DNA of 64,000 nt from Octopus vulgaris. Lineage: Eukaryota. Positions 1,679-64,000 of this stretch are shown here, one piece after another. The translations under genes and the position numbers were made by a program. The stretch covers positions 34,410,001-34,474,000 of the forward strand of contig OX597833.1 of NCBI GenBank assembly GCA_951406725.2, in the 5' to 3' direction. The notes beneath the pieces were generated by a model. The model did not search any database. It was not told where the DNA came from and worked only from the letters and a program-made list of their open reading frames with translations. How positions within the stretch are numbered: the stretch's first letter is position 1; the number at the start of each line of letters is the position of its first letter.

Positions 1679-4056
1679 TTCTCTATATATAGTATTTATC
1701 TCTTACCAGATGGTGTACTTATTTTGTCAATCTTACAATCATGAAGCAGTACACTGTGTGTTGTGTCTCTGTATCTGTCCCCCACCACCACTTGACAACC
1801 AGTATTGATGTGTTTATGTCCCCATAATGTAATGGTTCAGCAAAAGAGACTGATAGAGTGAGTATTGAGTAAAAAAAAAAAAAAGTATTGTGGTTGATTC
1901 ATTTGATGAAAAATTCTTCAAGGTGGTGCTCCAGCATAGCCACAGTCTAATGACTGAAACAAGGAAAACAGGTATGAAAATAAATGGCAAACACTTATCT
2001 CATTGCCAATGAGTATTGATCTATGAATTGACCTCAGAACTACAGAAAATGCTACAAGACAACCATGATAGCAGCAAGCTTAAATATGCACTTAAGGAAA
2101 ACTAAAGTCATATGCAAGTCCACTGCAAAAAAAAAAAATGGAGAGCAGCATTAGCATCAACAAGAGACGCATTCAGAAATTTATGTCTACATTTACCTGA
2201 GACAGTTGGTGACAAAAGACTGTCAGCAAGAGCAGGAGATGTGAAGTAGAATCAGCCTGAGCTGGATTGCCTTTGGCAACACTAGACTCCATCATGAGAA
2301 ATAGAAGCATGCCATTAAGGTTTATAAAGAAAGCACCTAGTTAGTGAAACTTGGTTACTGAACGAAGATCAATCCCAACCCAATGCAAAATGGAATGTCT
2401 AATGTTGGGACTGACATTGCATGGCAAAAGATGGATCAAATGAAAAACGGGAGTTATTGACATATTTCACAAAATCAAGTGGTAGAAGCACAAGCAGGTG
2501 ATGGAATGGCCATTGTGACTACATGTATTCAAGAGAACATCCAAAACTAAGATGATTTTGACCAAGCTACATGTCTAAACTGGAAGCAAGTAGCCAAAGA
2601 TAGATGGTGTTGAGGGAACTAAAGAGAGGTCCTTACAGTTGCAGAAACATGTATCCTGTTGATGATATAGAAAAATATATTTGTACAGACAGCTCTAACC
2701 CATATCAAAATTTGACAAAAAAATATGTGTTAAAATATTGAGATAATGTTAGGAACATTAAAAAGATAACTGGAAGTATACAGAGCAGAAATAAAACTAT
2801 TAGTCCAGGGAAAGAGAGAGAAACTTTAATGTAGAAATTTCAATGGTTCTATAGTCCAAGATTTTGAGAACTGAGGGTCAAGAAAGAGTTTTGTTATCAA
2901 TATGCAAGAGAAAATGGTAATAGAATGTCATCAGAGAAAATTTTGGAAAAAGGATGTGTAAATGTCGTTTGGCTTAAGTATTGTTCCATAAAGATCAATG
3001 AAGGACCTTACATAAAAGAAACTCTTGAAATGGATAGTTTAAGCATTTAATTTCAGCAGAATACCTAATCAAAAGGTTTAGTTGTCACAAATCAAAAACA
3101 TCTATCTGGTCACTGGAACACCATGTTGGGTGATGTAATCATACACTGTATGTGAATAGACGATGAGGTAGTAACTGTTGGAATGTTTTCGATCAATGTA
3201 TTTATTAGATGAGGACTGACCTGGGACTAAACAACATCTCAGCTGATTGTTGTTTAACTCACTCCAAGTCTAACAATGATAATGTAGACATGAAGGAATG
3301 TATCTTTATTGAAAAGAAAAAAAAAAAGACCGAAAGAGGAGCAAAAGACTTCGTTAAGAATTGAACTAATTGAAACCCAAGGTTGGAATGTCTATTGATT
3401 AGGGTTGATCTTGAACCAAACATTTCAGTTAACACCCAGAAAAATGGTTGTCATATTTCAGAAGAAAATGTGGGTTTAATTGTTCTTTGCAAATTCGAAT
3501 ATTTTTACGAGTTTTAAAAATATTCTACAGTTAGATAGTGCAATGACTAGAAGATTAAAGGACTGGTGAAGAATTCAAGCTTTAAAAACAGCTGTTACAA
3601 AGTTCAGAAATAAGGTTTATTCTCGAAATGAAAACCGGAAATTAACTTCTATTTTCTGTCACAATGTATCATATTAATGGACTAAAATATTCCCTTCACC
3701 TACAACGCCCGAGAAACTCGATCATTTCATTGTTTAACAACGAAAATAGAGAAATTTTAATGATCTTACAATTTTAAAAATGCCAGCAAACTGGGAAACT
3801 ATATTGCAATTGATATTTTTTTTAAAAAAAAAAAAGACAAAATTGAAGTAAATTTATGGATGATTAACAATAAATAATATACTATGATGAAAATAACTTG
3901 TATTTAGTACCGAGTTAAGTCCCTGTATGACAGACCCTAAACAATTCGATTGTGATAAATAATATAGCGAGGTCTATATAATCAGATCTTTCAATCTGGT
4001 AGCCATATAATTGACTAAAGCCAATGAAAATGAAATACAAAGTTCGTGGTAATAGA

Positions 4057-4334: not shown

Positions 4335-5370
4335 CTAGCAGCTAAGCCCAGTTTCACTCGTTTGGTCAGTTTGGATGATGTGGCTGTGATCCTTTTCGGT
4401 TAGGCATAATCTATAACAGCGTTTCTCAACCTTATCATTTCAGGCCCCACCGTTTCGACTGGAGCCTCCAGCTGTATGAAAATTTCCTGACCCCACCCCT
4501 TGTCAGAAAACAGCTTCAGGAGTTGTGAAGAACAAATTTGTACATAGTCTATTTCTGAGAGCTATTCTATTTGACCTCTGTCTAATCATTAAAACACTGA
4601 TTTAATTATGAACACAGAAAGAAATTATACATTAATCCCTATTGTTGTAAGCAGTTGTATCCATAAAAAATTTTACTTGCAGAGAGCAGAAATTGAAAGA
4701 AGATATATGAAATGGACGTGTGTGCATGCTTGCGCGTGTATATGTGAGAGAAAGAGATAGAGTGAGTGAAGGTGTGTGTTGTGATGATTGACGTCTTTTA
4801 AGGTACACACACATAGAAAATGTGAGGTCATCATATAAAATTTTTACGATAGTTGATTTATGGAAAAGATTGTTAAATTTTTGAAATGCAAATATGTGAA
4901 TGAAAATTAAGTTCAGACCTCTACATGGTAGGTAGACCTGGTAGAAATAGCAGCCAAATCTCCTTCAAAACACCCTACTCTCTTAATCTGACAATTCTGC
5001 CTATTATGTAGCTTGAATGAGAAACTGTAACTAAAGATTAAGATTATTAACCCCACAAAGAGGTGAAAGAAGAAAGACAGCATAGCGAAAGTTTTGGTTG
5101 ACTGTCATCCCGTACTCCCCTTGTTGCTAGCGAAATGGTATATGCTGGCTGTGTGAGCAACCGGTTGTTTTAATGACAGAACAAACGGAAATTCCATTAG
5201 AAAAAGTTTTAATCAATTTTCTCGGTAACTATGGGGGCTAGGAAAAAAATACAAACTGCATTCCAATCTATGCACCCGTCTCCACATGTGTGCCATTTTT
5301 CACACGAATCCACCCAGCTGTTTGGCTGTGAACCTCAAGACAAGAAAGAATACAATTTAAATTATAAACT
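4335..5370 (-). mobile_element. Possible old non-autonomous Helitron
   Basis: a|CTAGcagctaagcccagtttcactcg at 4335 resembles the CTAG+hairpin 3' end of the Helitron copy at 44561; the other end is only approximate. Confidence 0.35.
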
Positions 5371-5686: not shown

Positions 5687-6954
5687 CGAAGGACGTTCAA
5701 TAAGTAATGCCTCTGACCCACTTGCAGTTGTTTGATCTAGCTGAAATTTTGCATGTGCAATCATTTATATCTCTATAGAGTAAGTGGCAAATTACAGCAC
5801 TGAATTAATTGTGGTTTCTGATTTACAGGTGTTTGAACCGAGTCAAGTGTTAAATGGAGCCTGTTGAGTGTCGAGCAGTGATCCGGTTTTTGTATTTGAA
5901 AGGATGCACACCACGGGAGACTTTTGATGAAATGAAAGTAACTTATGGTGATGATGCCCCATCATATGACCTTGTAAAACGTTGGCATCGTGAATTCAAA
6001 CATGGTCGGAACTCTGTGGAAACAGCTCCCAGATCTGGTCGCCCCCTTCTGCCATTGATGAGGCATCTGTCCGTCAAGTTGAGGCTGCCATTTTGGAAGA
6101 TCGACGCATAACTATTCGCCAAATAGCCCATGAGGTCAAGATTAGTACCGGGTCTGTGGAAACTATCATTCATGACCATTTGCATATGCAAAAGGTATCT
6201 GCCAGATGGATTCCCAGGTTGCTCACGCCTTTCCAGAAGCAAGAACGCGTTGAGTGCTCGAGGGTGAATTTGGAGATGTGCCAAGAAGATGAATCAAAAT
6301 TTTTCAAAAGACTGATTACACAGGATGAAACCTGAGTCCATCACGATGATCCAGAGACCAAAGCCCAGTCAATGCAGTGGAAGCACCGTGACTCACCCCC
6401 TCCAAAGAAGGCAAAGGTGCAGCCCTCCGCTGGCAAGGTCATGCTCACAGTCTTCTGGGACCAGGACGGAGTAGTGATGACAGATTTCCTGGCAAAGGGT
6501 ACCACAATTGCAGGAGCCTATTATGCTTCACTTTTGAGGAAATTAAGAGAAGTTATCAAAATCAAGAGGCGGGGCAAGATCAGCAAAGGCATCCTCCTCC
6601 TGCAGGACAACGCTCCGGTCCACAACTCGCTTCTCGCCAGATCAGAAGCACAGGCATATGGCTATGAATTCCTCCCCCATCCCCCTACTTTCCTCACCTC
6701 TTCCCAGTCATGAAGTTGTTTTTGAAAAGAAAGCGTTTCCCAGATGATGCAGCCTTGATTTCTGAAGTCGCGTTCAGGTTGGAGGAGCAAGCTGGGGTCT
6801 TCTATAAAAATGGTCTCCAGAGCTGCATCAAACAATGGGAGAAATGTGTAACTGGGTGGTTCCTATGTAGAAAAAGACTAATAACTGTGCCAAGTTTCGT
6901 TGCTCTACTGCTATGGGAAGTGGGTCAGGGGCATTACTTATTGAACGCCCCTTG
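5687..6954 (+). mobile_element. Full-length but defective mariner transposon (about 1.27 kb)
   Basis: TA duplications at 5685-5686 and 6955-6956; about 37-bp TIRs (CGAAGGACGTTCAATAAGTAATGCCTCTGACCCACTT vs CAAGGGGCGTTCAATAAGTAATGCCCCTGACCCACTT); frameshifted transposase 5854-6870 with WIPRLL, TQDET and LLQDNAPVH; the YSPDLAPSD segment carrying the third catalytic Asp is deleted. Confidence 0.95.
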
Positions 6955-53110: not shown

Positions 53111-53218
53111 ATGCCTAGCTTAATTATCAATACTAATTTACCTCGGGCGAAAATCCCACAAGATTTCTTGTCCAAAGCTACTGAAATGATGTCGAAGCAG
53201 ATTGGCAAACCATCAAAG
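53111..53218 (+). CDS. MIF: Macrophage migration inhibitory factor, coding exon 1
   Basis: MPSLIINTNLPRAKIPQDFLSKATEMMSKQIGKPSK (108 nt) followed by donor gtaagt; catalytic Pro after Met, TN and GKP motifs. Confidence 0.92.
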
Positions 53219-54247
53219 GTAAGTATGTTAAAGAGCGAATTATTTTATTTAAAGATTTGCGCGTGGTATTGATTGTTGAGTGGCAGGAGCAGTTTTTACT
53301 TTTCTTTTTTTAGTTTATTTACCGTTTCAAAATATTAAAGTTCCCCTAACGAAGAAGGAAGTACATCTACATCATTCCCACCTTTCTTTTTCTAGATATA
53401 GATTACTTTAAACTATATTAACCAATGTGTCCTACTTTTTTTCTATAATGATAGGGCGCGATTTGACGGAGATTTATTTGGTATTTCAAGCAATTCTAAC
53501 TTCCGCATTAGGACAGCTTCGTTGTCTCGAAATATATGCTTGTTAATAAGGAGAATGAAAGAAAAAGAAAAGAAATAGAATGAAACCAAGTAAGCTATTG
53601 TGACATACGGAAAAAGCCTACTGTCTCTATTTCCCAATCATTGTGTTTATCTAGGACCACTCTAATCAACGTGTATTGTCTTTTTAAGACGTTTGGATTT
53701 GATTTGAGGAGATTAGGTTGCTATTTGGAACAGAACATGCGACCAAGCAGTCGCTTTTCTTTTTTGTTCGCAGTAATCGTTGCACCCAGTTTTGATTCCC
53801 CGTTGAAACTAAGCTCGATTCTGTACGAGCTAACAACAACCTCTACATAGCCTCCACTTTTCTAGAAATCAGGTCCTACTATCTTTAATAGGGAAATGGT
53901 GCATTGCGTCTGTAGTGTACCCCTAATGAGACGAGGTTGTCTCTACAAGTATAACTTTGGTAATAAATTTAGAAGATCAGGGTTGAATTTGACCTTTGTT
54001 TAAATATAAAATCGTGAAAAATTTGTAAATGTTTGCTTTTCTTATTTTTATATGTGTACCAAATGCTTATCTAAAAGAAAAGAAAAACACTATTTTACTT
54101 AAAGCTTTTACAAAGTTTACAAATATTATTACGTTATCATAAGTGATAAAAATTCGGTAATTGTTCAGTTTAGTGATATTAAAAAATTACGGAGATGTAC
54201 TCGCATAGCAAGAGATTTGATCTGAGATCGTGTGCTGGAACGAAAAC

Positions 54248-54420
54248 AATTGCTGCGTGGAAGGTGTTTGTAAGCCATTTAAGAAACACACAAAAGCCGT
54301 TCGATTCACTTCAACATTTAAGTTTAATTTGTCAAAATATTAAACTTAAATGTTGAAGTGAATCGAACGGCTTTTGTGTGTTTCTTAAATGGCTTACAAA
54401 CACCTTCCACGCTGCAATTG
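54248..54420. repeat. Near-perfect hairpin (about 80-bp arms) in MIF intron 1, same family as 23727-24162
   Basis: caattgctgcgtggaaggtg...tttaagtttaat [ttgtcaaaat] attaaacttaaa...caccttccacgctgcaattg. Confidence 0.85.
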
Positions 54421-54721
54421 TTGATGTCAAAAAGTAAATAAAAAATGAAGGGGAGATAACTAGTAAAGGAACGTGCATAAGTCAACATAAATATTGGTTA
54501 TTATTTACTTTGGAATTGATCAGATAGGCACGTGGAAAACCAGCGGGACCGCAATTCATTGTTCGTGAAATTGAAATCGTCAACCATGAATCAATTTTGG
54601 AATATTACCTATTTAGCCGAATAACGAGACCAGATTCTTCCAGTGGTTGGCAGGGCGACGACTAATAATGAATTTATACGCGTGCAAAAATTGTAACTCT
54701 CCATGTTAGCTTACTGCAGTC

Positions 54722-54950
54722 GGCGAGCTGGCAGAAACGTTAGCACGCCGGGCGAAATGCTTAGCGGTATTTCGTCTGCGTTACGTTGTGAGTTCAAATT
54801 CCGCCGAGGTCGACTTTGCCTTTCATCCTTTCGGGGTCGATAAATTAAGTACCAGTTACGAACTGGGGTCGATGTAATCGACTTAATACCTATATCTGTC
54901 CTTGTTTGTTCCCTCTGTGTTTAGCCCCTTGTGGGTAATAAAGAAATAAG
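54722..54950 (+). mobile_element. Full-length tRNA-derived SINE with Nin/Deu-like domain
   Basis: Head GGCGAGCTGGCAGAAACGTTAG, B box GAGTTCAAATTCC, core gactttgcctttcatcctttcggggtcgataaattaagtaccag; degenerate copies near 16915-17110, 45730-45950(-), 57060-57230(-) and 59010-59150(-). Confidence 0.8.
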
Positions 54951-57517
54951 TATTAGTTGTTTAACAGTAAGTTGACTTACGTATGGCCCTTTACTAGTTA
55001 TCTCCACCTTAATTTTTATTTACTTTTCTAATGTCACTAAACTGCACAATTACCAAAAATTCTTAATGTCTTTCAAGTAGTGAACTTAATGGTGAATTAA
55101 TCGAAGCAGCCACTCTCCTTTTACAATCTATGGTTGTGCTCTAATTAACAATTCATAATGGCAATCTGAATGCTAACAATTTTTTTTAATTTTATGAATT
55201 GCTGCAAAGTATACGAAATCCCAAGCCTGCTTCTCCACTCAATAGAATTTAGGACCCATCTTCCACTGGTTAAAATGAGGCTTTTATAGCTTAATGCATC
55301 TTTAGTAAATCAGTAGATTGTTTAATCTCTTTGTTGTCCTGACTGTTTCACACATACTAATTATCATTTTCTGAATATTTTACATTTTTATTTTGAATAT
55401 AATATCAGGATGTTGAGCACCTAGAGCAGCCCTATAAATTGCAAGCTCCTTCTCCCAGCTTTACAAAATGAGTCCTCTTTCTCAATGTCTTCTGAAACAG
55501 TTAAAAAATTATCAACTAGTAAACAAGAAATCTATGGTTTTATGTTAATGTATATCACTGTGTAAATCAGCAATAAGGCAAACTTTGAAATGTTTTACAC
55601 CAAATCATGTGACTGATTATATCACCACACAACACCCTCAGCTCCCCCATTCTGCCCCTAATCTGTCCAGCAGTAAAATCATCTGCTCCCTTTATTATTA
55701 AGTTTTCGTATTTTTAATTGGATTGAAGTTTTTGTCTAAATTGTTTAAAAATATCTTTGCCATCCTAGGTGATTGCCTCATTTCCTGAGTGTGAAAATAT
55801 TGCAGAGCATAGTCATATAACTTTTAATCAAATAGATTCTCTTTATTTAAATTCTTGCTCGTTTTTCGTTCTTTGAAATTATATCAGAGAAAGTTGAGAG
55901 AGATCTCCTTGTCTTTTATAGGCATTCCCAAATCTTTTGGTATTTAGCTTAAAATTGTGTTGGTCAAAGCCTGTAAGAAAGATTTAGATGAGAGAATTCT
56001 AATGGAGTTGCACCCCTAGAGAAGAGTATGGCAAAGCTTTTAGCTAAAAATCTTGACAAGATGAAAGAGGATTAACAAACAAAATTAGGCAAGGTTGGAC
56101 AGTATTCATGACCTCTGCAGGTTTTCGTAAACTGATGCCCAGCCCAAACATCTGCAGGAAAAAAAATGTGGGAGGAAATAGCTGAGGTATCTCATTTGAA
56201 TGCTTGGAATATGCTGGACATGTTTTCATAAGACCTAGAAGCAAGGAACAGCACTTATTTGATGGTGATGTTCATTTATAACTATCAAGGGATGTGGAGA
56301 CAAAGACACAGGTGTGTGTGTGTGTGTGCACGCACACACATAAATATGACTTTTCTTTCAGTTTCTGCTTAACAAGTCCACTTATTAAGCTTTTAGTAGC
56401 CTGGGTCTATACAAGACACTTGCCCAAGGTACCATGCAGTGTGAATGAACCTGAAATCATATGATTAGGAAGTGAAACTTTTAACCATACTGTCAAGCCT
56501 GCACACAAGCACATGTGTGTGAAGCCGTCACAAGATGTCATCTTATTGTGAAGCTTTTCATTTATAGTGACTTCACTTGTTCAAAAAGGAGGAAGGGTTT
56601 AATGTAACATGTATTGAATGTAGTTTTGTGCTATTGAGATATCGTTATTGTAATTCGTTTTTGAGGACTCTATTTGTAGAATGAGTTGTCCTGGTGGCAC
56701 TTGTGTATAGAAGGGTAAACAGGAATGAATAGTATTATCATCTGCATTGAATTGTTTGTGGTTATTAGTAACATTGGGAAAAATGTTGAAGGCGTAATCA
56801 GTTGTTTCTGTATACAAAATTTAATGAGCTGGAAAGACTGCCATCAGTACAGGCTTTGATAGAGCAGTGTGATAAGAAACTTTTGATGTAAAAATGAGAG
56901 GAAGAGTGTCTGCAGTATAGAATTTAAAATGGAGGGAGTTTAAAACTGTTGAGTTATGAGGCTTTTGTGTTTGATAAGTTATCTTTCAAAATCATGATGA
57001 GTGTGTGGTTTAAAAGTTGTTCTTAAGAATTATATAATTTTCTATCTTTTCTAGCAAAAGCACAAGGTCTTAAATTTGGGTGAGGTTAGTTGATACCATC
57101 AAGCCCAATATTTGATTGCTACTTTATTTTATCAATCTCAAAAGGGTGTAAGGCGAAGTTGACTTCAGTAGGGTTTGAACACGGAATGTAAAGAACCAGA
57201 ATTAAATACCAAAAGACAGATTTTCTGATGCTTCATTATTTTATTTGTATTATTTTGTCCTGTAATTTGAGAAGGAATAGCAGTTGTTGTGTAATCAATA
57301 ACATAGTTGTCTGGCAACCTAAGGATACATGATTCAAGAGCTGTTAGTGGGCCTATTGCTTTCTTTCTTTTTATCTGCCTCAAATTGGTGTTTATGAGGT
57401 TTCAAATCATTTATTACTATTGTTGGAGTTATTGAAGGGAAGTTGCAAACTGTAATTGCTGAACTTTTTGTTATTATTGTTATTGCACTGTTAATGCTGC
57501 TATTATTGTTGTTACAG

Positions 57518-57690
57518 TATATTACCATTTGTGTCCATCCTGACCTAATAATGAGCCATGGAGGGTCGGATGACCCATGTGCTTCAGTTCATGTTACTTC
57601 TATTGGAAAACTAGGGCCAGATGTCAACAAGGACCATTCAGCAAATATTGGAAGCTTTATCCATGAAACTTTAAAGATTCCAATGGACAG
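57518..57690 (+). CDS. MIF: Macrophage migration inhibitory factor, coding exon 2
   Basis: ttacag| YITICVHPDLIMSHGGSDDPCASVHVTSIGKLGPDVNKDHSANIGSFIHETLKIPMD(R) |gtatgt; 173 nt, phase 0 to phase 2. Confidence 0.93.
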
Positions 57691-58369
57691 GTATGTTTTC
57701 TTTGTTATTATTTAATCCTTGATTAGCCCTAATCCACCAAATCTATGATCAAATATGTTGTTGTTGAATGAACTTTGCAGGTTGTTATTATTTAATTCTT
57801 GATTAGCCCTAATCCACCAAATCTATGATCAAATATGATGTAAACATGACCATTCAGTCTTTTTCCTTGATGTAGATATCTACTACATTAATGTTAAACA
57901 ACCTTATTCAGCGAGTCCACCTTTTAAGATGGTAAAATTTGATTTGAAGAAAATTTGGTTGTTCTTTCTAGCAAGATAACTAACTGTATATAAGCTCTTT
58001 CATTGGTATGTTTTTGTTGTTGATGTGTGAACTATTCAGATTTTCTCTAACTGTTATACATAAGGTAAATGCTTGTCAGCAAGAAGTTGATTACTTTACT
58101 TGGAAGAAAATTCTAGTAAGGTTCAAGTTGAATGACTCTTACACTCCTACTACATGGAGTCCAGTAAGAATGTATGATCATGTGCATAATACCAACATGG
58201 CCCTCTATTTCTGAAAGGCTTTTCAGTTTGTTGGCATATCTAGTCAATTGAAGAGCAATAAGATGAAACTGCAATTTGGATAAGCAGTCCCTGTTTCTCA
58301 AATAACATAATATATACATGTGTGTGCGTGTGTGTAGATATATATATGGCTATATATATAGATAATGTG

Positions 58370-58685
58370 TCAGTGATTAGTGTCAGGCCCACAATCATGA
58401 AGTAGTTTGATTCCCAGATTGAGCTGTGTGTTGCGTTCTTGAGCAAGACACTTTACTTCACAATGCTCCTATTTACTCAGCTATAGAAATGAGTTACAAT
58501 GTCACTGGTGCCAAGCTGTATTGGCATTTTCTTTTCCCTTGGATAACATTAGTGGTATGGAGAGGAAAGGCTGGTATACATGGATGACTGCTGGTCTTCC
58601 ATAAACAACCTTGCTTGGACTTGTACCTCAGAGGGTGACTTTCTTAGTGCAATCCCATGGACATTCATGACTGAAGGGGGTCTTT
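58370..58685 (+). mobile_element. Degenerate CORE-type SINE in MIF intron 2
   Basis: tgcgttcttgagcaagacactttacttcac...ctcagctatagaaatgag resembles the CORE consensus, after a decayed tRNA-like head. Confidence 0.5.
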
Positions 58686-59508
58686 GTATACAAATATGAG
58701 AAAGAGATATTTACTGTAACAATTGCACTCTCTGTTCTAATTTGCTGATTGTGTACCACATACCTGTGATTCATCTGCTAGTCTTCTCTCCTTACTATTA
58801 TTCTCCAAATCATCATTTTGTCTGAACACTCTCTTAGGTCTAATATTTAGAAATATTAGAAACAAGACATTGAATTTGTGTGTAGATGCATGCAATTTGT
58901 ATATGTGCATGTTTGTGTGCATGTGTACATGCATGCATCTGTGTATGTACAGATCAGTCTTTTCATTGTTTTTGACTTTAATAAATTAGTGAAATTTGTA
59001 AACACAATGCCCCGAAACTGATGGCCACATCAACTCTTGTATGAAACTCTGGAAAGGCAAAAGATAAAGTTGACTTTGACAGGATTTGAAATCTGAATGT
59101 AAAGCAAGGTAACTAAATACTGCAAGCCATTTTCTCTACCATTCCACTAACTCCACCACTCCACCACCCTTATAAACATCATCATCATTTAATGTCTGTT
59201 TTCCATGCTGGCATGGATTGGACAGTTTGACAAGAGTTGGAGAGCTGACCAGAATCCAATTGTCTGTTTTGGCATGGTTTCTATAGCTGGATACCCTGCC
59301 TAACACCAACCACTTTACAGTGTGTTGAGTGCTTTTTATAGTTCACTGACATGGGTGCACTTAAGTAGCACTGGCACCTGCAAGACAAAGACCTCTCAGG
59401 TGGGAGGGGGAGTAGGGGTATGGCCACAAAGGACATGTGTGTATGGATGGCTGCAATTTTACTTAGCTTGATGCGTCTTAAGTAAGATGTCTTATTTTAC
59501 ACTTTTAG

Positions 59509-59572
59509 GTTTTACATACAATTCAATGACTTACTTCCTTCTAATGTTGGTTATAATGGTACAACATTTTAA
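59509..59572 (+). CDS. MIF: Macrophage migration inhibitory factor, coding exon 3 (protein totals 114 aa)
   Basis: ttttag|G TTT TAC... gives (R)FYIQFNDLLPSNVGYNGTTF*; phase fits exon 2; AATAAA at 59638-59643 and 59659-59664. Confidence 0.92.
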
Positions 59573-59702
59573 AATGTTAGCTGAAGCTTCACACCAAGTC
59601 TCAATTTATACAGAAGAAAACATTAAAGACATGGAAAAATAAACAAAGAAAATAGTAAAATAAAAAATATGAATTATTTTTGTTTTTCTTGAATTTTATT
59701 TT

Positions 59703-61080
59703 TTAAGATCTACCAATAATAAATTGCCATGTCTTTCCTTTGTTCACAGAACTACATTTTTCCTGAATCCCACCTTCACACTTCCATATATGCGTACTAA
59801 TCAACATACAAACCTCATTGTTTTCTTGTTTCATTGGTTCTTCTGTCGTAAGATCAATTTCTAGTTGTATTCTTACTTTCATGCATTTTCTCTTTTTCTT
59901 TTCTGGTGATGCTAGGTCAGTTTCCATGTAGAGGAATCTTTTTTTTTTTTTTTTTGCTTTGGTGTGTAACATATTCTCTTGATGTATTTGTTAATGTTTT
60001 TTTTTTCATATGGTATAGTCACATGAGAGGATTTAATTCAATCATGCCCCCAATCTTTTAATTTTGGCATTGGTTTGTAAGTCTTGTAGTAATATACTCT
60101 AACTATTGCATCTCTCTTCTGCATGATGGTCCATAGTTCAGTGTTGCTTCTGTTGAAACATGGTGTTCTTTTTTGTATCCTTTCTAGTTGATGTCTAATG
60201 TTTATGCATGTTGGTGTTCCCTCCAGGATGCATTTTGTTTCTTTGTTGTTTCTTGAAACCACATTTCATCAGTGTAGATTATTGTTTTGTTGATGCAGCT
60301 TCCGAATGTAAAATTATATGATGCTTGGCAACACACATTCTTCCACAGTTCATGAGTCCATTCTGTATTGAACACAGTATGTAACTTTTTCTAGAATTTC
60401 TGACACCCATTATGTGTAGTCCTTTTTTTTCCCTCTTTTTTTGTATGTGACAGATTTCAAATGTGTGTTGTGCAAATTTAGCTGAGTCAATGTTATATTG
60501 CAACCATTTGTCCAATATGTTTAGTGATGTTTGTACATCCCCAGTATTGGTTGTTTGCATTTGTGAGGAAGAATTCCTTTTTCTCTCTTATTTACTCTCA
60601 TTTTGGTGTTTAGTTCCAATGCGAGTTCTTGTTGCTGCACTTTATATGATGGTGCTGAGATTTAGTGTAGATTTGTAAATGCTGTCCTATGTTTCTTTGT
60701 ATTTTTGTTTATCTGAAGTTTTTACAAAGTGTTACATATTTTCAGGAGTTTTTTTAATAAAGTTGTATTTCTTACCTTGTACGATGTCTTGGTTTTTTTA
60801 TTATGTGCTCTTTGTCACTTTCCTCTTGTAAAACATTTTTTTGCGAGTCTGCATCAAGCATGTTTTCCAGGATGACCCAATGTTTTTTGGTGTCTGTGGT
60901 GAGGTAATTAGCAAATCTGTATGGATTGAATATTTTTTGACATGATAGTTTGTAAGGTTTGTTTCCTCTTTGTTGTAGTAACCTTTTCACCACCATGAAG
61001 TTGTAGTTGTTGTTGGGGTGCTTTCTGTGCCATGTAATAACATGAAAGTGGTATGTTGGAACAGTGTTTAAAGTTTTCAG
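59703..61080 (-). pseudogene. Endogenous parvovirus/densovirus-like NS1 (HUH endonuclease plus SF3 helicase), frameshifted
   Basis: YHFHVI (HUH, HFH at 61042-61050) in frame with FANYLTTD (motif III-like); Walker A GVRNSRKS (60384-60407); NFTFGSCINKTIIYTDE (Walker B 60265-60282); KCILEGTPTCINIRHQ...RTPCFNRSN (B' and C); C-terminal PEKKKRK. Confidence 0.85.
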
Positions 61081-61412
61081 ATGTCATTCCAGTTGCTATT
61101 CCTGTATTGATTGTTGGCATTTTTTGTGGATGGCTGGCGCAAGCATAATTTGATTCAATTTTAATGAAATATGTAGTTTCGAAAGTAAAGTATAATGTTG
61201 ATTTCTCTTTACTCTTTTTCTCTTTTACTTGTTTCAGTCATTTGACTGCGGCCAAGCTGGAGCACCGCCTTTAGTCGAGCAAATCGACCCCGGGACTTAT
61301 TCTTTTTAAGCCCAGTACTTATTCCATCGGTCTCTTTTGCCGAACCGCTAAGTGACAGGGACGTAAACACACCAGCATCGGTTGTCAAGCAATACTAGAG
61401 GGACAAACATAT

Positions 61413-61467
<55 letters not shown>

Positions 61468-62955
61468 CATATATACGACAGGCTTCTTTCAGTTTCCATC
61501 TACCAAATCCACTCACAAGGCTTTGGTCGGCCCGAGGCTATAGCAGAAGACACTTGCCCAAGGTGCCACGCAGCGGGACTGAACCCGGAACCATGTTGTT
61601 GGTTAGCAAGCTACTTACCACACAGCCACTCCTGCGCCTGTTGGTTTTGGTAATAAAGGGCAATTAATTAATATAATTTCTGGTGGGCCCTCTGATGTGT
61701 ATGCCACATTGTTTATTAGTGTTCTATCTGCTACTGTGTATATTTCAGATGATTGTACTTGTAGGTCTGTTGTTGTCACTGTGATGTCTTTTCTGAATTC
61801 TTGGTAATTGAAAGCTAGATCAGACACTTCTGTCCTGGCTGAGTCTTGTTTCTTTTGTTCTGACTCTTAGATGATTGCTCTTACAATTTAATATAGCATT
61901 GTTGCCATCTGTTCCGTATGTTGGTGCCATGGATACATCTAGACATCCATCCAATATAATATCTCTCTCTCTAGCTGATATGGTGTTGAATGCTGGAGGA
62001 AAATGTATGGTTAAGTTGTCACGTAAGGTGTTGGTTAGGGGTTTTCTAAGTAATGACTTGTTGAACCATTTGCGTACATATGTATCCCCTTGTCTAATCT
62101 TTTTAACTGAGTTCATCTCTCTCCAATCGTGGAAGTCTGTGATCAAAGTTGTGCATTCTTGAGTGTCTGCTGTAATTTTGCATTCTGCATTTCTGTTCAT
62201 TACCATTATTGGTGCTGAATAACTGTATTCATATTTCGGTAGGAACACGTGTTATGCTGTTGTGGGTTGTATTTCCCTTGTTTGGTATGTGAGATAATTT
62301 AAGTAGGTTACCAAACCCAGTGTATTTGAAGGTTTCAAGGATTGGAATGGCCACTTCGTCATTGTTTTTTGTTTCCTGCTGTAATGTTGTCACTTTTGAA
62401 ATTCATGCTTCTTATTTTGTGTGAAGTTGCATTTGATAGTGATTGTTTGAACTTTATTGGTTAACAAGTAGAGTATGATGTAGTCTTCAGCTTATACTCT
62501 TCCCCATCTGAAGTGTCCTGTGTTGTGCATTCCTTTTTCTCTCCATTTGATATTTTGTGAATTTTTCTTTGGTTGTATTCATGTCACATGATTTGATCAT
62601 GTTTCTAAACTTTCTGCTGAATTTAAGTATTTGGGTTTTGCTCCTTTCCATCCATTGTTTTCTCCTCTTCTGCCTCTGAATTTTGTGACTGTTGATTTAA
62701 AGCTATTGCAGTATCAGTATTATGTCCAGAGACAGCAATATTATTAGTATTGGTTTCTGGTGGTCTGAAGTAGTTATCAAGTCTGAGATAGTGCTTAACA
62801 GTGATTTCTCCTGTTGCAAGTATGCCAGTTGGACTGGTCTGTATAGCACTTTTGATGAATTTTTTGTTTTGTTTGCCTCCTGAGTATCTATGTCTGTGGG
62901 CATAATTCAAGTAGTGTTCTTTTGCAATTAGATCATGTTCGTTTTGTAGAGGCTC
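60908..62955 (-). pseudogene. Endogenous parvovirus-like capsid (VP1u PLA2-like remnant plus major capsid), frameshifted and SINE-interrupted
   Basis: EPLQNEHDLIAKEHYLNY...EANK/KFI resembles the PLA2 PxNxxDxxAxxHDxxY...AD..F motif; IRQGDTY resembles the LRTGD capsid motif; Thr/Asn-rich frames; the frame GPPEIILINCPLLPKPT|EKSTLYFTFETTYFIKIESNY resumes across the SINE. Confidence 0.65.
61205..61639 (-). mobile_element. Young tRNA-derived SINE inserted in the viral capsid remnant
   Basis: Near-identical to 8101-8527, including A and B boxes, internal (TA)n and the 3' tail. Confidence 0.9.
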
Positions 62956-64000
62956 TCATTGGTTGCTACATTGCTGTTAAGATCAAGTTTGATGTGACAA
63001 GCCTATATTAAAAAGTATGCTAAAGACAGACACATACCAAATGTTGACAAAGGACAGAAAATGATCTGTTGGTTGTGCTTGCATTCCAACTAATTTCTTG
63101 CACATTTTAACTTACAGTATTGATTTGTCATTTAGGTTTGGAGGCTAATACATATTTGTCAAATGCACACTACTACCTACCATGGTGTATTCTTTCTCTT
63201 CTTCCTCTAATTGAACTGAACCAGTCAGAATATAGGGCTAATACAAACTATCAACACTGCAACAAGTCAACTAGCCTACTTCTAAGTGTGATTTTACATT
63301 TTTTTAATTGCAGTTCTTTGAAATGTTTTCTTTTGACAAGAAAGTTTGTAGGAAGCCTTAATTGTTCTATGGAGCAAGAAATTACTGCGTAGATAGTACA
63401 AAATATTGCCCTCAGTCAATAGTGACTCTTAGTCATTATTGAGAAAGTGCAATAGTTTAGTTGATTAAGTATTGAACCAGTGTTTGATCTGTAACTAATG
63501 ATGCTATTGTCAACAAATAGTAATAAGGAAGGAAAAATAATCATGTTATCTTCCAATGCTATATATTATAATGCATTGAATTTGTCAGGCAGCAGGACAC
63601 ATGAAAGCAAAGTATAGACAATTTGATGATGGAAAGTACTGAACTAACAAAAAAAAAATAGTTTAGGTTACTAAGAGAGAACTTTTTCTCTCCTGCCTGG
63701 ATTTGCTTTTGTTACATATTTACTACAATTTTTGTTTAGTTGTCTACAAGTCGTTCTTTAACTGTAGTTAGGCTTTTTAAGGTAAGAACAGTTGTATGAG
63801 GATGTGTACACACATGAAGGTAGTAATTCCAAATAAAAGATGTGAACCTTTACAGCCATCCAGAATATGTTAAGGTTACAGTTAAGTTTTATGAAAAAAC
63901 AAAACAAAAACGTAAGTTTCAAATTCAATTTGATTTTTATTCATTTTGACAAATAAATATATTGAACAAAGAAATGGCATTGTGTGGAAACAAAGAAAGC

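Follow-up and report, generated by a model that had tools for sequence, protein, structure and literature searches.

Monosense parvoviruses carry the NS gene at the left end of the genome and express it before the capsid gene that follows. The window, a stretch of 64,000 nucleotides of octopus DNA, contains a viral element for which an earlier note had proposed the reverse arrangement, with a capsid gene (VP) upstream of NS1 and overlapping it on the same strand. The question raised by this locus is whether such a layout belonged to the source virus or arose in the copy. Our answer is that the window holds the decayed endogenous remains of a parvovirus-type virus in which, very probably, VP preceded NS1 on one strand. 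As the best reading of the related copies, with a probability of about 0.6, we propose a parvovirus lineage associated with cephalopods in which the two genes have swapped places and the genome is linear.

The A-rich element was observed on the minus strand at about 63000-59700 as a decayed endogenous copy. Its order along that strand, PLA2, VP, HUH and SF3, was confirmed as first described by tblastn and profile matches. The decayed PLA2-like region of the VP1 N-terminus (62764..62952, minus strand) aligned by tblastn to residues 34-95 of the relative P0001 (E 6e-5), and intact relatives scored above the Pfam cut-off for PF08398. The capsid body (61645..62665, minus strand), containing several stops and frameshifts, aligned to P0001 144-516 (tblastn, best E 1e-36) and matched the VP profile, and the P0001 model is predicted to have a parvovirus capsid fold. 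Homology to VP ended at residue 516 and restarted at residue 519, on either side of a high-copy host short repeat (61205..61640, no strand assigned) with very high depth and loose ends from 61204-61208. We take this repeat to be SINE-like, and the first residues of the VP frame in the earlier note fall within it. The last capsid segment kept (61064..61198, minus strand) corresponds to VP residues 519-562 of 608; against each of P0001, P0002 and P0003, 0 of 300 shuffles scored as well. On the NS1 side, the piece of the HUH endonuclease that starts at motif II and takes in the motif III region (60775..61050, minus strand) aligned to P0010 91-170 and P0013 100-185 (0 of 300 shuffles as good). The linker, SF3 helicase and C-terminal part (59776..60800, minus strand) are broken and matched P0010 by tblastn (E 2e-43) as well as the NS1 profile, and intact relatives of this part pass Pfam Parvo_NS1. 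Within the helicase we observed a decayed Walker A at about 60407-60384 and a Walker B at about 60279-60265 (minus strand). With stops and frameshifts in both genes, the window copy is dead.

No viral family was matched when ten viral fragments of the window were searched against Pfam, the fragments being too short and decayed, so better-kept relatives were sought. Searching the same genome yielded further copies, and public assemblies supplied intact relatives, with a VP of 606-621 aa and an NS1 of 514-568 aa. In one copy, L019, the VP frame is interrupted by just two stops over 600 codons and encodes a PLA2-like domain that exceeds the Pfam cut-off; as a query it recovered three unbroken VPs on Logan contigs of 4078-4470 nt. 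Using a helicase piece as the query recovered NS1 proteins of up to 568 aa, including relatives from cuttlefish. The predicted domain PF08398 (PLA2-like, VP1 N-terminus) was above cut-off in P0001, P0002 and the L019 VP; a PLA2-like domain in VP1 is an optional feature within Parvoviridae. Parvo_NS1 was the sole Pfam family to pass in P0010 and P0013, and the best match of the NS1 profile to the PDB was AAV Rep (E 2e-14). The HUH motif II was read off the NS1 alignment, and the window pieces aligned to the HUH and SF3 parts. Trees of NS1 and VP, built for the lineage and two outlying copies, were mostly without resolution, and the absurd branch of L020, probably read out of frame, was given no weight. 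Three related VP1 proteins (P0079, P0081, P0097) carried an N-terminal extension of 85-107 residues before the PLA2 region.

Sequence comparison of the L019 VP to the PDB returned 0 hits, and a first capsid model built on 4 sequences (pLDDT 35) was set aside. The P0001 model, built on 82 sequences with a mean pLDDT of 56, gave a best VIA-align score of Z 16.0 (rmsd 4.5, 262 aligned). The top 20 rows of that search were all parvovirus capsids (Z 9.9-16.0), followed by a next row at 6.7, with circovirus capsids at 5.8. Foldseek matched the same model to AAV capsids (E 1e-9), and in the Atlas most of the top matches were parvoviral, one being a smacovirus capsid set (0.94). Identity of the capsid to the parvovirus capsids listed, whether solved or predicted, does not exceed 16%. 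From this model, it is predicted to fold like a parvoviral jelly roll. Taken together with the Pfam and PDB matches, the capsid fold identifies the upstream frames of the window as capsid, which upholds that part of the earlier note through both homology and the P0001 fold.

Gene order was examined by scanning 24 stretches with the VP and NS1 profiles. Both genes were found by profile in the window, L010, L007, L008, L019 and L052, and L020 joined them through a VP tail recognised by alignment, which 0 of 300 shuffles equalled. Our count leaves out L010, a duplicate of the window, and L052, a scrambled copy of a second lineage. All five of the independent loci counted (window, L007, L008, L019, L020) carried VP then NS1 on one strand. 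Four of these keep an undeleted junction consisting of the VP end, a short spacer and the NS1 start, so the VP-to-NS junction does recur in related copies, a check that had been proposed for this locus. The spacer measured 93 nt in L007, where a TATA-like box lies 45 nt before the NS1 ATG, 27 nt in L020 and about 113 nt in L008, and was LINE-interrupted in L019; none held a strong hairpin (fold z -2.05 to +1.15). The NS1 start was supported with 0 of 300 shuffles as good in L008, L019 and L020, and by a short, marginal match in L007 (9 of 300). The L007 element was contained in one contig in both of two DNA runs, and at its positions 4781-4858 another large internal deletion has brought the NS1 start directly against the part of the helicase that follows Walker A. 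In P0149, from another assembly, VP residues 328-365 are fused in frame to NS1 residues about 162-231, again with VP first. Large deletions thus recur in the lineage (window, L007, P0149), as they do in defective genomes.

Divergence between the loci was high at synonymous sites (pS 0.61-0.85) and low at nonsynonymous sites (pN 0.10-0.47) in all 15 comparisons. With synonymous sites saturated and pN low, the loci derive from different coding viruses and not from one insertion. We therefore regard the VP-NS order, seen here in endogenous copies and contig proteins, as very probably native to the source viruses. The earlier suggestion of an undescribed parvo-like lineage with a VP-NS layout gains support accordingly, the order recurring with a short natural spacer at four independent loci besides the window.

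Contig data from other assemblies were also examined. Members of the VP cluster P0003 and the NS1 cluster P0011 lie on contigs of the same lengths, 4078, 4065 and 3790 nt (among the 15 of 34 P0011 members listed), which suggests that one contig carries both a P0003-type VP and a P0011-type NS1, in an order that the lengths do not give. The NS1 on the 4.07-kb contigs was called at only 370 aa, so these contigs may be endogenous copies. Among the matches listed, P0011 NS1 contigs recurred at about 1.94-1.99 kb and 3.8-4.08 kb, two sizes that would agree with an NS1-only transcript lying inside a longer one that spans VP and NS1. Scans of viral, metagenome and prokaryote contigs contained no related loci. 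A second, distant endogenous parvovirus-like lineage was observed at L051 3160-5539, with long NS1 frames behind a cysteine-rich N-terminal stretch, and at L052 4294-5514, where a scrambled NS-VP-NS arrangement places a VP piece before the NS helicase. Extra short viral fragments were also observed beside main copies (L036 6632-7002, L050 4900-5085, L042 5467-5580), one of them inverted.

The form of the genome was approached through the ends of the copies. None of 12 element ends ran from NS1 into VP, a weak test of circularity, since truncation affects most ends and a circular genome linearized at its origin would give the same picture. In L019 the flanks are direct duplicates of each other, 97% identical over about 320 nt of host and LINE sequence (3451-3773, 6592-6885), and this fixes the 5' boundary. 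The 5' end so defined folds as a hairpin (-20.4 kcal/mol, z -3.43, 0 of 200 shuffles), the best of 70 windows across L019. Such a hairpin was found in one of four ends tested, other ends having z values of -3.7 and -3.1 with weaker energies. The L019 terminal hairpin is suggestive of a linear genome. No terminal repeats or end sequences common to the copies were found beyond host repeats. Contigs of the relatives span 4.07-4.47 kb, compared with the linear genomes of 4-6 kb, with hairpins of 120-600 nt and two cassettes, described for Parvoviridae (PMC6537627). Since both proteins are of parvoviral type, and linear hairpin genomes are what defines the family, we favor a linear form and consider native order combined with a linear genome somewhat more probable than all other readings together.

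Ambisense densoviruses express VP from its own promoter near the genome end and carry PLA2 in VP1. Their VP and NS genes (Densovirinae) lie on opposite strands, whereas both genes of the octopus lineage lie on one. The native layout in the octopus lineage would run from one end through a promoter, VP1 with PLA2, a short spacer and NS1 to the other end. An end-proximal promoter may drive VP1; a TATA-like box was found 35-48 nt before the VP start in L007, L008 and L019, these being motif matches only. NS1 would be expressed from an internal promoter of its own in or near the spacer, for which the TATA-like box in the L007 spacer is a candidate. Two presumed-RNA runs compared to L007 gave short cross-matches only. 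The predicted genome is linear and single-stranded, of about 4-4.5 kb, with terminal hairpins, and by analogy to Parvoviridae NS1 would nick and unwind the termini in a predicted rolling-hairpin replication. The swapped layout could have arisen if one cassette of an ambisense genome was inverted or, alternatively, if a head-to-tail circle was permuted.

The strongest competing explanation, which we consider possible but clearly less likely, is that the viral genomes were circular and unisense, encoding a parvoviral capsid, PLA2 and NS1. VP-to-NS1 would then be one of two junctions, and integration would open the circle at an origin lying past the end of NS1 and before the promoter of VP, so that every copy reads VP before NS1. 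Such a circle fits the five VP-NS1 loci and their short spacers equally well, and an HUH protein can nick a circular origin. In L019 and L045 the sequence NANTATTAC, which we take to be the CRESS nonamer, was matched ahead of the TATA box of VP. These are two of 12 ends, about what chance would give in A+T-rich DNA by a rough estimate, and the L019 match is not in a stem-loop. Also speaking against a circle are the lack of an end crossing from NS1 to VP and the membership of both proteins in types known from Parvoviridae, with its linear hairpin genomes. In addition, the term 'parvo' is absent from the main text of a large survey of circular viruses (PMC7000223). If the circular reading were true, the lineage would connect CRESS rolling-circle viruses to hairpin-ended parvoviruses and would have left repeated fossils in octopus and cuttlefish genomes.

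An improbable alternative keeps the ordinary NS-VP order in the virus and derives the copies from head-to-tail concatemers or episomes that lost their terminal sequences at the junction. Head-to-tail parvovirus episomes are known from bocavirus, where, in the portion of PMC3125170 available, the VP end is joined to the NS start on one strand much as in the octopus lineage, and the large deletions listed above are common in the copies. However, the bocavirus junction is 513 nt long and holds the terminal hairpins, as given in that same portion, whereas the octopus-lineage junctions of 27-113 nt are without a strong hairpin. The same telomere loss would be needed in at least four separately derived viruses, with the VP end and NS1 start left intact 27-113 nt apart. 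Moreover, this explanation predicts that copies with an ordinary NS-to-VP junction should be the commonest, and none was observed. The earlier note had offered a concatemer with a deleted junction for the window; the deletion is upheld, and the concatemer is disfavored.

That deletion very probably also accounts for the overlap first reported in the window. The two frames (60908..61237 and 60772..61083, minus strand) are indeed open and overlap by 176 nt, with no hairpin between them, as stated before. Homology to VP in the upstream frame is restricted to 61198-61064, and the stretch 61069-60911 gave no VP match (13-100 of 300 shuffles as good). Upstream of 61050 the HUH frame likewise gave no NS1 match (82-261 of 300 shuffles as good), its homology beginning at residue 91 of P0010 or 100 of P0013. 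The NS1 N-terminus is therefore missing here, as the earlier note had suspected. NS1 restarts about seven residues before HUH motif II; these few residues sit in the VP frame and resemble those found directly ahead of motif II in P0010, P0013, P0017, L008 and L020, a likeness that is not significant when taken alone (82 of 300 shuffles as good). The junction of the deletion, at which VP meets these residues ahead of a small frameshift, was placed at 61051..61069 (minus strand). The window lacks some 46 codons of VP, the spacer and 83-92 codons of NS1, a total of about 0.4-0.55 kb. Single contigs bridged the junction in all four DNA runs examined, taken from 20 listed with window sequence and representing four organism labels and four studies, so the deletion is real and shared and not an assembly error. 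A small frameshift after the deletion probably keeps the VP frame open as far as 60908. The apparent overlap is almost certainly an artefact of a deletion of about 0.5 kb plus this frameshift. That VP and NS1 truly overlapped by about 170 nt in the source virus is highly improbable, for all that both frames are open over 60908-61083, as neither is homologous in its supposed overlapping part, codons of both genes are absent, and four undeleted junctions are without overlap.

In the published descriptions, all parvoviruses have NS at the left and VP at the right (PMC11357303, available part). This is the usual layout and not a formal criterion in the ICTV profile, where linear hairpin genomes define the family; the five loci depart from it. 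Compared to monosense Parvoviridae (AAV, Hamaparvovirinae), the octopus lineage shares an NS1 with HUH and SF3 domains, a predicted jelly-roll capsid, a PLA2-like VP1 N-terminus and a likely genome size of 4-4.5 kb; it differs in that VP precedes NS1 and in the low capsid identity given above. The Swazi bat-associated megaparvovirus, in the available part of PMC13426907, also has a PLA2-bearing frame upstream of NS1, but its capsid gene follows NS1 in a genome of about 6.4 kb, whereas the octopus lineage has the whole capsid gene, including PLA2, first. For cephalopods, the available text of Francois et al. 2016 (PMC5013282) reports NS only as short fragments and VP as a single Octopus fragment of 565 nt, gives no gene order, and treats marine mollusc sequences as uncharacterised new lineages. 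The Sepia and Euprymna NS EST fragments in that text share helicase motifs with the octopus-lineage NS1 when compared by eye. The parts of PMC6950620 and PMC4795697 available contained nothing bearing on the question. Among its top-ranked papers, our literature search found no description of a monosense parvovirus with VP before NS; subscription papers, GenBank annotations or bioRxiv supplements may hold one. If native, the swapped order would mean that NS-first is not required and that cassettes can be permuted, e.g. via a circular or ambisense intermediate. The lineage bears on the relation of linear hairpin parvoviruses to circular rolling-circle viruses, and would provide a first genome plan for cephalopod parvoviruses, which are represented by fragments only in the papers cited here.

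The viral element lies beside a host MIF gene of three exons (53111..59572, plus strand), identified by Pfam MIF in the middle exon (E 9e-16) and by motif scan in the first and last exons. The two are convergent on opposite strands, with about 130 nt between the MIF stop and the NS1 end. The history of the window may have begun with an integration just 3' of MIF. The deletion would have occurred before or after integration, and decay, repeat insertion and a tandem duplication together with MIF would have followed. A tandem duplicate of MIF and the viral element was observed 18.4 kb downstream (97.8% identity over 8.8 kb; window 53111-64000 compared to L009-L010). In runs X5 and X6 the contig depth over the window element was roughly double that over L007, and in X3 not clearly so, a weak hint of a real, perhaps variable, duplication of MIF and the element. 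About half of the words of 59990-61200 were present in several presumed-RNA runs, and read-through from the 3' end of MIF could produce antisense viral RNA.
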